From an uncultured delta proteobacterium (GTDB taxonomy: Bacteria > Desulfobacterota > Desulfobacteria > Desulfobacterales > Desulfosalsimonadaceae), in assembly GCA_963826785.1 (NCBI GenBank), contig CAWGYD010000006.1:768001-832000 (forward strand): a stretch of 64,000 bases of DNA. Direction: 5' to 3'. The notes beneath the pieces were generated by a model. The model had not been told where the DNA came from. It worked only from the letters and a program-made list of their open reading frames with translations, and did not search any database. This document shows, one piece after another, positions 27,850-38,326 of the stretch; positions within the stretch are counted from its first letter, which is position 1; every line of letters starts with the position of its first letter. A program made the translations under genes and the position numbers.

Positions 27850-28290
27850 TCAAAAGGGAATATCATCATCGATGGCCGAGGCCGGAGCGGACCCTGCATT
27901 TGCCGGTTCATAGGTGTCTTCGGAGCGGGAGGGGGCATTGTAGGCGCCGCCGGCGGTCTTTGGATCCAGCATCTGCATGTCGCTGGCCACGATCTCCGTG
28001 GTATAGCGGGTGACTCCGTCCTGTTCCCATGAGCGGGTCTGCAGCCGTCCTTCAATATAGACCTGGCGCCCCTTGGAAAGAAACTGGCCGCAGATTTCGC
28101 CCAGCTTGCCGAATGCCACCACCTTGTGCCATTCGGTCTTTTCCTTTTTTTCCCCGGAACTCTTGTCGGTCCAGTCTTCACTTGTGGCAACCGTAAAATT
28201 GGCGATCGCCGTACCCCCCTGGGAGTACCGGATTTCCGGGTCACGGCCAAGCCTTCCGATCAGCATTGCCTTGTTCAATCCTCTTGCCAT
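27850..28290 (-). CDS. ssb: Single-stranded DNA-binding protein
   Basis: [31 protein letters not shown] and C-terminal DDDIPF. Confidence 0.97.
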
Positions 28291-28330
28291 GATCACCCCT
28301 CTTTTCTGGTCAGTTTGGGTTTATATTGGA

Positions 28331-28356
28331 CTGGATCGCCGGTTCCGGCGATCCAG
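28331..28356. terminator. Strong hairpin between the small ORF and ssb
   Basis: CTGGATCGCCGG-TT-CCGGCGATCCAG perfect IR. No clear U-tract. Confidence 0.5.
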
Positions 28357-28363
28357 ATCGAGC

Positions 28364-28534
28364 CTACTCTTCGATATTTTTCGGTTGATCCGGAGAATGC
28401 CGGACGGGTTTGTTTTTGCCGGTCAACTGACAGGCATCTTTCATTCATGTGGATACTCCCATTTTAGGTAGAATCCACGCCTGGAGGGCGTACCAGATGC
28501 CGATAAAAAGTCCGATGAATATAATGGTTTTCAT
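28364..28534 (-). CDS. Candidate small membrane-anchored selenoprotein (56 aa, UxxxxC)
   Basis: MKTIIFIGLFIGIWYALQAWILPKMGVST-TGA-MKDACQLTGKNKPVRHSPDQPKNIEE-TAG. SECIS-like hairpin 9 nt after the TGA. Confidence 0.62.
28418..28435 (-). promoter_or_regulatory. Candidate bacterial SECIS element
   Basis: GCCUGUC-AGUU-GACCGGC hairpin. Apical G is 18 nt 3' of the UGA at 28445-28447. Confidence 0.55.
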
Positions 28535-28790
28535 ATCTTAAAAATTCCCGCATCTTTAGGGTGGTTGTGTTTTTACCGGTGAAATAGAAGAGAGCGTCTG
28601 AAAAATTGAGAAGCAGTCCGGTTAAAATTTTTTTCAATGTAAATTAAAAGCAGAAAAATGTCAAAATAGAAAAAGACAGCCGGGGTGTGGCCGCGACCGG
28701 CAAATCCGAAAGAAGCCATCAAGACCGCCATTTGTTTGACAAAATGGGTAATAATTCAATATAATTAATTAATTGAGATCAGGGGGAGAG

Positions 28791-29021
28791 ATGGAAAACG
28801 ATACGGCTCGCAGTGTCGAAATTCAACGGCTGGTGTATCTTTCCGCGGAGCGCACCCTTTTGTCATGGATCCGAACGGCACTGGGTTTGATGGCGCTTGG
28901 GTTTGAGAAATTAAAAGATACCGATCCCGGCCCGGGGCTGTTTCCGGCCATCGCGTTTTCGCTCCTGATGGCCGCCGCAGGAGTTGCCGTTGCCGGTTTT
29001 CTGATGGCCGTGAAGTACTGA
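28791..29021 (+). CDS. DUF202 (YidH-like) membrane protein, short
   Basis: YLSAERTLLSWIRTALGLMALGF signature. Appears to lack the middle TM helix. Confidence 0.75.
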   Translation: MENDTARSVEIQRLVYLSAERTLLSWIRTALGLMALGFEKLKDTDPGPGLFPAIAFSLLMAAAGVAVAGFLMAVKY

Positions 29022-35592: not shown

Positions 35593-36724
35593 ATGTGTCG
35601 TTTATTCGCCATGACCAGTGACACGCCGGTCTCCCCCATGGTGGCGCTCAATGCGCTCGATGTCATGCGGGAAGGGCATGACGGTTCCGGGGTCGGGCTG
35701 TTTTTGCGGGACCTGGGCGGAGCGTTTGAAGAGATGAAGGATGCCCCCATCCTCTCCGGGATTTTCACGGAATCCGGGATCAAGCGGCTGGACGGCTATA
35801 TGATTGATATCGGGTTTCTGACCAAGTACAAAATCTCCATCAAAGTGCCCAAGGTGCCGCCCCCCGGAACACCCCGGCGGGATATCTACCTGATCCGCGC
35901 ATATGAGTATCCGGAGGAATGGGAGCATCTGGATCTGGCCGAAAAGTACGCCCGGCTCCTGCAGATCCGTCTTTCTCTCAGGAAATGGGGCGCGAGGAGA
36001 AGGACATGATCGTCTTTTCATTCTGGCCGGATACGGTAATGATCAAGGAAATCGGTGATCCAATGGCCGTGGGCAAATATCTGGAGTTGGACAAAACAGG
36101 AGCTCACCTGCCCGGGTGATCATGGCCCAGGGGCGGCAGAATACCAATTATGCCATCAACCTGTACGCCTGCCATCCGTTTTTCATCCAGGGGTTTTCCA
36201 CGATGACCAACGGGGAGAACACCGCGTTTGTACCCATCCGGGAGTATCTCATGTCACGGGGGGTGACCGGATATACCGGGTTTTATTCCGACTCGGAAGT
36301 ATTCGTCCATATCCTTCATTATATGACCACCCGTCTGGGACTCGACATCGAGACCTATAAGCATGTCATCACACCGCTGCAGGATGACGATCTGGAAGAT
36401 CATCCGGATGGCATGTTTTTGAAGCACCTGAAGAAAACCTGCCGGAAACTGATCATCGACGGACCCAATTGCGTCATCGGGGCGACACCCGACAACACCA
36501 TGTTCATGGTCCAGGATCGAAAGAAACTGCGGCCCGGGGTGGTGGGCGGACGTCCCGGTCAATACGCGTTTTCATCTGAAATCTGCGGGTTGGATGCGGC
36601 CATGCCGGATCGTGATAAAACAACCGATTTTCAGCCCATGCATCTGGATACGGTGATCGTCAAATCCGATCGCCGGGAGGTAAAGATATGTCAACAGACA
36701 CAGCGATTATCCCTTCTTCATTGA
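35593..36724 (+). CDS. Glutamate synthase amidotransferase subunit (class II GATase; frameshifts ~35980, ~36100)
   Basis: N-terminal MCRLF (Cys nucleophile), GHDGSG, QGRQNTN, CHPF, NGEN, SDSE, DRKKLRP spread over three ORF fragments. Confidence 0.88.
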
Positions 36725-38326
36725 GCATCAAGGATCTGCCCTGGCAGATCAACTGGAGCAAGGAGAAGTGCACCCTTTGCGGCCAATGCACGGCGGTATG
36801 CCCGGTTCACGCCATTGAACTGGGCGTGTTCCGGAAGCGCCTGATCGATGCCGGAATCGGTATTCAACAGAAACCATCCAATGTGTATACCACTTATCAC
36901 GGCATCCGGCAGCGCACCGCTCCGGCATACCACTGCGTGGGGTGTGCCATGTGCACCATGGTCTGCCCCAATGACTGCCATTATGCCGCTGAAATCGGAC
37001 GAGGCCGAAAAACTCAAGTTTCACCTCAACCAGGGCGGCGAACCTGAGCGCCGGGGCGGCCGTCGCAATGCACCCGGCGGCGTGCTGGACCGGATCAAGT
37101 TCATCCGCATTTCCATGCTCTCGGACCCGGCCCTGGATGCCGGACGGCACGAGTTCGAGATGCGGACCCTGCTGGGTCGAATCCTGTCCCCGGAAGACAG
37201 CATCAAGTTCGTCCGGGAGCACGGATGGATTCCGCCGGTGCGGGAGATTTATCCGCTGATCATCGGCGGCATGTCCTTCGGCGCCCTTTCCCCCACCATG
37301 TGGGAAGGGCTGCAGATGGGGGTGGCCTATTTGAATGAGGAATTGGGCATGCCCGTGCGCATCTGCACCGGGGAAGGCGGATGCCCCCCGAGGCTGCTGC
37401 GTTCACGCTTTATGCGCTATGTGATCCTTCAGATCGCTTCCGGCTACTTTGGCTGGGATGAGATCATTCATGCCATTCCGGAGATGAAGGCGGATCCCTG
37501 CGCCATCGAGATCAAATACGGCCAGGGGGCCAAGCCCGGGGACGGCGGGCCTGCTGATGTGGTACAAAGTGAACAAGCTCATCGCGGCCATCCGCGGCGT
37601 TCCCACAGGGGTCAGCCTGCCCAGTCCGCCCACCCATCAGACCAAGTACTCCATCGAAGAAGCGGTGGCCAAGATGATCCAGTCCATGTACATGGCCTGG
37701 GGGTTCCGGGTGCCGGTCTATCCCAAAATCTCCGGCAACTTCTACTGCACTTGCGGTTTTGAACAACCTGACCCGCAATCCCTATGCCGGCGGTCTGGCC
37801 ATCGACGGCGAGGACGGCGGCACCGGGGCGGCCTACAATGTCTCCATGAACCACATGGGGCACCCCATCGCCAGCTGTCTGCGGGACTGCTACCAGAACC
37901 TGGTGGCGGTGGGCCAGCAGAATGAGATTCCCCTGTTTGCCGGCGGCGGCATCGGCAAGAACGGCAACCTGGCGGCCAATGCCGCTTCCCTGATCATGCT
38001 GGGGGCCAGCGGGGTCCAGGTGGGCAAATATGTCATGCAGGCGGCAGCCGGATGCCTGGGATCGGAATCGGGCCGCTGCAATATCTGCAACATCGGGCTC
38101 TGCCCCAAGGGGATCACCTCCCAGGATCCCGCGCCTGTATCGGCGGTTGAATCCCGAAGATGTGGCCCAGCGGGTGGTGGACATGTTTGTGAGCTTCGAT
38201 ACGGAACTGCGAAAGATCGTGGCCCCCCTGGGCCGGTCCACATCGCTCCCCATCGGCATGTCCGATGCGCTGGGCATAGACGACCAGAGCATCGCGGAGC
38301 GGTTGAAAATCAAGTATGTCGTATAG
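36688..38326 (+). CDS. Glutamate synthase FMN-binding subunit with N-terminal 2x[4Fe-4S] (about 4 frameshifts)
   Basis: CTLCGQCTAVCP, CVGCAMCTMVCP, MSFGALS, TGEGG, QIASGYFG, EIKYGQGAKPG, C..C..C cluster. Confidence 0.9.

Follow-up and report, generated by a model that had tools for sequence, protein, structure and literature searches.

The locus lies in a 64,000-nucleotide stretch of DNA (the window) and consists of a short minus-strand gene placed between DUF202/thioesterase genes and an ORF that we take, from its sequence, to be ssb. The frame of this micro-gene begins with an ATG at 28534, passes through an in-frame TGA at 28447-28445, and ends with a TAG at 28366-28364; translation of the window gives 56 amino acids with read-through, in agreement with the coordinates and translation of the initial annotation. 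The features of the locus are listed below.

28364-28534, minus strand: candidate micro-selenoprotein gene, ATG to TAG, with the TGA as Sec30, 56 amino acids (sequence and conservation)
28469-28528, minus strand: single transmembrane helix, approximately residues 3-22, predicted N-out/C-in (sequence, model of a Cys homologue, K/R bias)
28445-28447, minus strand: in-frame TGA, almost certainly a Sec codon, after the conserved LPxxG(I/V)xT motif (TGA in 116 of 116 loci; Cys in the same column elsewhere)
28430-28432, minus strand: Cys35, candidate resolving cysteine (UxxxxC here; the spacing varies in the family)
28417-28436, minus strand: putative SECIS hairpin, loop AGUU at 28428-28425 (fold, covariation, contrast between Sec and Cys forms, model criteria)
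28329-28359, minus strand: strong hairpin after the TAG, without a U tract (fold and z-score)
28636-28664, minus strand: sigma-70-like promoter match TTGACA-17-TACATT, 10 of 12 positions, about 100 nt before the ATG (consensus match alone)
27850-28296, minus strand: presumed ssb, downstream on the same strand; a neighbour outside the element

Two sigma-70-like matches were found, with 0.8 expected, and the ribosome site of the micro-gene is weak (GGGA, 11 nt 5′ of the ATG). A further sigma-70 match, perfect at 12 of 12 positions, stands ahead of a short DUF202 ORF that is divergent from the micro-gene (window positions 28736-29021, plus strand) and whose second half looks degraded. As the initial annotation had stated, a strong hairpin follows the TAG rather than the TGA: at 28359-28329, the fold had a z-score of −4.98, and none of 200 shuffled sequences folded as well. 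It lacks a U tract and does not figure in the terminator list, and the own genome (the genome from which the window comes) contains it in full only once; it is possibly an attenuator or an RNA stability element before ssb.

Reading of the in-frame TGA

Matches to the query protein were found in 27 of 40 relatives, and since the TGA is common to all 27 homologues, it is not an assembly error. Four weak matches among the 40 relatives (E above 0.03; L035 and L036 included) were dropped as non-homologues. A profile of the 27 cores matched 181 of 401 genomes of the same phylum, own genome included (45%); gene content and the published homologues point to Desulfobacterota as this phylum. Among the 150 matches listed, 147 hold one TGA, and the other three, which stop just before the site, show a TGA when fetched. 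A set of 116 Sec loci was drawn from the 40-relative search (28), the profile search (28, two duplicates removed), and a further 60 picked for family spread among 120 profile matches listed without loci. The codon at the site was TGA in every one of the 116 (114 by script and two by eye). Frame, stop, and hairpin counts were made on 115 of them, one locus ending at a contig edge.

The frame following the TGA was open for at least 11 codons in 115 of 115 loci, so that coding sequence continues past this codon; in the two alternative frames, a stop comes after 10 codons or fewer in 58 and 48 loci, respectively. Insertions after the TGA codon are in frame among homologues, and the true stops of the 115 genes are distributed among TGA (49), TAA (41), and TAG (25). 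A site-blind scan of metagenomes, using a DNA pattern of only the 13 codons before the site, yielded at least 121 loci. Among the matches listed, 117 were distinct, with TGA at the site in 116, TGC in one, and TAA or TAG in none, and the tails after the TGA were at least 12 codons long in 116 of 116. Replacement of the codon by TAA or TAG, which the initial annotation had named as evidence against recoding, was likewise seen in none of the 116 genomic loci.

The homologues with cysteine at this position that had also been anticipated were found. Cys occupies the site in 17 of 35 protein matches; 15 others show Trp, and these we read as products of gene callers that use TGA as a Trp codon. A pattern that demanded Cys returned 71 genome loci, whose titles include 44 Planctomycetota, eight Acidobacteriota, and five Myxococcota or Deltaproteobacteria. 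One TGT allele (L196) is identical to a TGA allele (L262) at 169 of 182 nt; the L196 record is titled Cyanobacteriota and lies at a contig end, and may be misbinned. A tree of Sec and Cys forms (38 columns, 185 rows), with eight of 180 branches starred, is too poorly resolved to order their origins. The Cys-only pattern gave no loci on viral contigs, and no match to the family was found on plasmids.

The sequence immediately 3′ of the TGA folds into a hairpin of 4 bp, a 1x1 mismatch, and 3 bp closed by the loop AGUU (−9.1 kcal/mol). Its loop begins 16 nt past the UGA and places a G at +18, the apical position given in the initial annotation. Taken alone, the hairpin is modest: on 38 nt, z was −2.35 (four of 200 shuffles as good), and on 48 nt, −1.33 (20 of 200). 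The bSECIS model, as set out in a 2026 review (PMC13188914), specifies a loop of 3-9 nt, a stem of 4-16 bp, a G in the first two loop positions, a spacing of 16-37 nt, and an energy of at most −7.5 kcal/mol; the query hairpin, with a loop of four (AGUU), seven stem pairs, a spacing of 16 nt, and −9.1 kcal/mol, lies within all of these ranges.

The mean hairpin z-score was −2.27 in the 115 Sec loci vs. −0.21 in the 71 Cys loci, and the loop carried a G at its first or second position in 110 of 115 and 40 of 71, respectively. The presence of the hairpin thus tracks the codon, being kept in TGA loci and absent from Cys homologues. When 32 loci of the commonest type were aligned, pairing held in 91.5% of cells, and two-sided compensatory changes occurred in three of the seven SECIS pairs. 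Covariation reached 0.352 vs. 0.202 in shuffled and at most 0.195 in slid alignments, a control that is inflated by related sequences. The hairpin is conserved in the way that had been proposed as a check on the candidate.

The selenocysteine machinery of the hosts is in part visible. The own genome has tRNA-Sec (selC) and a selA gene split by a frameshift at one point into two frames (G000:C3:45512-46608, L001), probably through an assembly indel; searches for selB and selD were negative in the assembly, which is 88% complete. A TGA is present at what we take, from their motifs, to be the Sec position of FdhA, one MvhA-like, and two MvhD-like genes. Among the 181 carriers of the family, selA was found in 170 (ten unlisted negatives were deduced) and selB in the 10 examined of the other 11, which places selA or selB in 180. 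The co-occurrence discriminates little, because selA is present in 371 of the 401 genomes of the phylum. In genomes with the Cys form, selA is present in at least 22 of 50. Elsewhere in the window (35593-37762), genes that are presumably glutamate-synthase-like seem broken into consecutive ORFs, which suggests further assembly frameshifts.

It is highly improbable that the TGA is a true stop, leaving a 29-residue membrane peptide and, behind it, either a re-initiated 26-residue ORF or a conserved RNA hairpin, or that it is an assembly error: the conservation past the TGA overlaps the hairpin and could be RNA-driven, selB and selD were not found in an assembly that carries frameshifts, and an ATG follows the TGA in the own genome, but TAA and TAG never occupy the site in the 116 genomic loci and the 117 metagenomic cases among the matches listed, Cys alleles exist (one of them near-identical), the frame stays open and takes up in-frame insertions, and the hairpin is absent from Cys forms. 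The two-ORF arrangement (TGA-ATG), offered as an alternative in the initial annotation, fails because homologues with an ATG right after the TGA number only 80 of 115 in the genomic set and, among the matches listed, 42 of 116 in the metagenomic one. Codon 30 is almost certainly read as selenocysteine via SelB-tRNA(Sec) and the hairpin. The central proposal of an unannotated membrane micro-selenoprotein with a SECIS element is well supported by the invariant TGA, the open frame, the covarying hairpin, and the Cys forms, and the expectation that ORF callers would miss the gene agrees with the output of standard callers, which either cut the product at 29 residues or take the TGA as Trp.

Protein architecture and relation to described families

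In an AlphaFold2 model of a Cys homologue, residues 2-25 form one helix, with pLDDT of 90+ over residues 1-20, followed by low-confidence coil. Lysine and arginine are more numerous after the helix than before it in 115 of 115 Sec forms and in 58 of 70 Cys forms; by the positive-inside rule, this excess places the Sec at the cytoplasmic face. A single-pass topology with the N terminus outside and the C terminus inside is therefore predicted. A lipoprotein reading was rejected by inspection under the lipobox rule: an invariant Thr occupies position −1, and a charged, proline-broken stretch precedes the residue.

The initial annotation described the candidate as UxxxxC, which holds for the window copy but does not define the family. 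The distance from U to C is five in 92 of 115 genomic loci; a second Cys lies within seven residues in 106 of these loci, later in four, and nowhere in five. Among the metagenome matches listed, it lies within seven residues in 71 of 116, farther away in 35, and is missing from 10. The second Cys being usual but not fixed, the invariant unit is the helix plus LPxxG(I/V)xT plus Sec or Cys, and not UxxxxC. A subfamily with U-A-V-P-x-P-R-R has the second Cys at the far end of the tail or has lost it (for example, metagenome loci L207, L208, L245, L247, and L304).

The initial annotation had not recognised a described family in the candidate. That the family is undescribed is not supported: six members are printed in deep-Sep Data S1 among known selenoproteins. 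The query and these entries, compared by eye, have the same length, the same hydrophobic helix, and the same LPxxG(I/V)xTU-x4-C core, and show no substantive protein difference. The traits of the printed family (~50-60 residues, one helix, LPxxG(I/V)xTU, Cys five residues on), for which the source gives no profile or cut-off, were found by eye in the query. Judged by sequence, the window gene belongs to a family that is already in print as a label. The family is absent from Table S1 of the deep-Sep paper and does not appear by name in the 119-family Table 1 of the 2026 review (PMC13188914). No description of its function or origin was found in the literature searched, including PMC5029168, PMC2398784, PMC13326102, and PMC9163753; Haft and Tolstoy 2025 or the BSepDB supplement may name it. 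Nor did the literature searched yield a description of its range, Cys homologues, neighbours, or overlap with sigma factor genes. Recoding as such is nothing unusual; the family, predicted once before and without a function, is uncharacterised in the literature searched.

Searches against collections of known families returned little. None of the NCBIfam models (June 2026) matches the query, and the 27 members gave scattered weak hits alone; a word-indexed protein search with the query gave no match. The family has no curated model. The sole Pfam match of the query, DMAC1/Dmo2, was below the cut-off (E 0.078) and was rejected. One unnamed cluster in the ESM Atlas, at 0.89, is a lead.

The YgaP-like transmembrane domain (PF11127, formerly DUF2892) resembles the family in being a small membrane protein, and ends in W-x-L-x-x-x-G-x-x-x-C; it differs in having two helices and an invariant Cys-Pro motif. 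HHalign aligned the WILPxxGxxTC stretch with the YgaP-like C terminus over 13-15 columns, at a probability of 42-47%. Membership of PF11127 was rejected, the alignment being short and weak and neither the query nor the 17 Cys members having a Pfam match to it; the similarity of the core to the YgaP-like C terminus hints at shared origin and not at membership. SELENOK and SELENOS have a single-pass anchor and a disordered cytosolic tail with the Sec near the C terminus, far from the membrane. The family is likened to them by this architecture, with the difference that its Sec stands right behind the helix, and the query has no Pfam match to either. Thioredoxin-fold UxxC/CxxU selenoproteins share with the family a Sec with a downstream Cys and probable thiol-redox chemistry. 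Assignment to that class was rejected, because the product has one helix and low-confidence coil in place of a folded domain, and its spacing is variable, at five or more. Should the prediction be correct, a membrane-anchored, domain-less architecture is added to the bacterial selenoproteome, and the family, found in 45% of 401 genomes, is among the most widespread selenoproteins of the phylum while being invisible to standard annotation.

Gene neighbourhoods and possible functions

The ORFs at 187 loci were sorted into clusters, of which the 70 largest were retained and had their representatives named by Pfam and NCBIfam. Flanks were 4 kb for Cys loci and 1.5-2.5 kb for Sec loci, and the counts are raw and include kin, which are not independent. 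A sulfur, thiol-redox, or anti-sigma neighbour lies within 4 kb in 56 of the 71 Cys loci, a raw count in which 44 loci are Planctomycetota and not independent. These neighbours comprise small YgaP-like proteins (28 of 71 loci), zinc anti-sigma (26; zf-HC2, with RsrA-like below the cut-off), thioredoxin (16), ArsR (14), rhodanese-YgaP (10), TauE (9), CoA-disulfide-reductase/rhodanese-like proteins of the pyridine-nucleotide disulfide reductase-rhodanese type (9), and SQR-like proteins (7). The 116 Sec loci are accompanied by FmdB zinc ribbon (16), ECF sigma (12), anti-sigma (11), Tat 4Fe-4S protein (12), ssb (8), and thioredoxin, ArsR, rubredoxin, and NrfD (five each). The position upstream of ssb, reported in the initial annotation, is real in the window but, at 8 of 116 loci, a local arrangement. 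At 65 of 116 Sec loci, the window's among them, every redox or regulator class that was counted is absent, and tblastn of the own genome with the small YgaP-like, ECF sigma, and anti-sigma proteins tried was negative; hence none of these is an obligatory partner. At one locus (L084:2469-3005, plus strand), a Sec micro-ORF runs in frame into thioredoxin, a possible 178-residue fusion; this is a single case and may reflect stop loss.

The company that Cys relatives keep, namely rhodanese, YgaP-like, thioredoxin, SQR, ArsR, and zinc anti-sigma genes, suggests a thiol/sulfane-sulfur relay. According to this model, the hairpin, 16 nt past the UGA, would bring in SelB-tRNA(Sec) for the insertion of Sec at codon 30. 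The product would be a single-pass anchor with its N terminus outside, the Sec at the cytoplasmic membrane face, and, past it, a predicted disordered tail that usually carries a second Cys. The targets of the Sec would be disulfides or membrane-soluble sulfane sulfur such as polysulfide and persulfide; the tail Cys may resolve the adduct to a selenenylsulfide, and thioredoxin may reset the latter. Drawn from neighbours and chemistry, this whole reading, in which a recoded gene supplies a membrane-tethered selenol/thiol for a sulfane-sulfur relay, falls somewhat short of probable, and we put it forward tentatively. If true, it connects the family, in a way that can be tested, with the handling of reactive sulfur by anaerobes of sulfide-rich settings.

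The same neighbourhoods also suggest a role in signalling, in which the selenoprotein would report the redox state to a zinc anti-sigma and its ECF sigma partner and, at loci where the genes overlap, Sec read-through would set sigma translation. A zinc anti-sigma gene lies directly upstream in 26 of 71 Cys loci, and among the 116 Sec loci, the genes directly downstream include an ECF sigma in 12 and an anti-sigma in 11, in several families. In 11 of the 12 sigma loci, the predicted sigma ATG comes immediately after the SECIS and lies in the +1 frame, 34-43 nt downstream of the first UGA base. In nine of these 11, the usual interval contains no strong ribosome site (0 to −4.9 kcal/mol, vs. a small-ORF median of −7.15), and in nine, the best ribosome-site sequence is the SECIS loop itself. 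However, AGGU is also the loop most often seen elsewhere (32 of 115), the loop lies 16-19 nt from the ATG in seven of nine cases, which is long for a ribosome site, and the sigma starts are predicted ones. No conserved ECF-type promoter was found upstream of 115 Sec genes (top gapped words, all AT-rich, occurred 11 times vs. 5-7 in shuffled sequences), and 104 of 116 Sec loci, as well as the own genome, are without a sigma link. We consider signalling an unlikely role for the family. A complex prediction for the Cys peptide and the zinc anti-sigma gave a score of 0.00, which speaks neither for nor against. In the overlap loci (L016, L018, L020, L023, L025, L026, L031, L043, L046, L052, and L054), the sigma gene starts inside the tail of the micro-ORF and is followed by a zf-HC2 anti-sigma gene.

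The stronger version, in which the family would be the input arm of a redox- and selenium-sensing module, tied to anti-sigma/ECF sigma in two phyla, and the SECIS would double as the sigma translation-initiation region, with sigma synthesis under the control of Sec insertion at a single UGA, is very doubtful. The own genome being without that sigma, the window copy would be an uncoupled member. Overlap loci make it possible to test directly whether UGA read-through serves bacteria in sensing selenium, and, were this version true, it would amount to a selenium sensor that bacteria have made out of their recoding machinery.

It is likewise unlikely that Sec and Cys serve at the membrane as ligands of a soft metal (Hg, Cu, Zn, or W/Mo delivery). 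The two residues are close together, some Cys forms have CC tails, RND efflux and membrane-fusion genes occur near 15 and 22 of the 71 Cys loci, mobB is near five Sec loci, and zinc-ribbon neighbours occur in 16. Nevertheless, the U-to-C distance varies between five and over 20 residues, and some members lack the Cys, unlike in a fixed metal site, and the frequent neighbour clusters include no metal-resistance enzymes.

That the selenoprotein is a small accessory subunit of membrane electron-transfer complexes appears quite improbable: while the micro-gene follows a Tat-exported 4Fe-4S protein gene in 12, a membrane partner gene in nine, and NrfD in five of 116 Sec loci, and bd-oxidase-I-like genes are near nine Cys loci, the partners differ by lineage and are absent beside most copies, the window's included. 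Compared with these alternatives, the sulfane-sulfur relay remains the reading that we favour.

A further observation concerns the FmdB-type zinc-ribbon genes that adjoin 16 Sec loci. All 16 end in TGA, which is followed by one to three codons and a second stop, giving the motif C-x4-G-F-S/T-U-x1-3-stop, and most have a SECIS-like hairpin (examples are L120:2609-2821, minus strand; L124:2849-3058, plus strand; and L081:2683-2892, plus strand). Such genes are probably a second hidden selenoprotein with a C-terminal Sec, as judged from their sequences; this candidate is distinct from the known FmdB UxxU form, and its C-terminal motif was not found in the deep-Sep supplements. One of the three FmdB homologues of the own genome has the same TGA ending (G000:C8 near 363353, minus strand).
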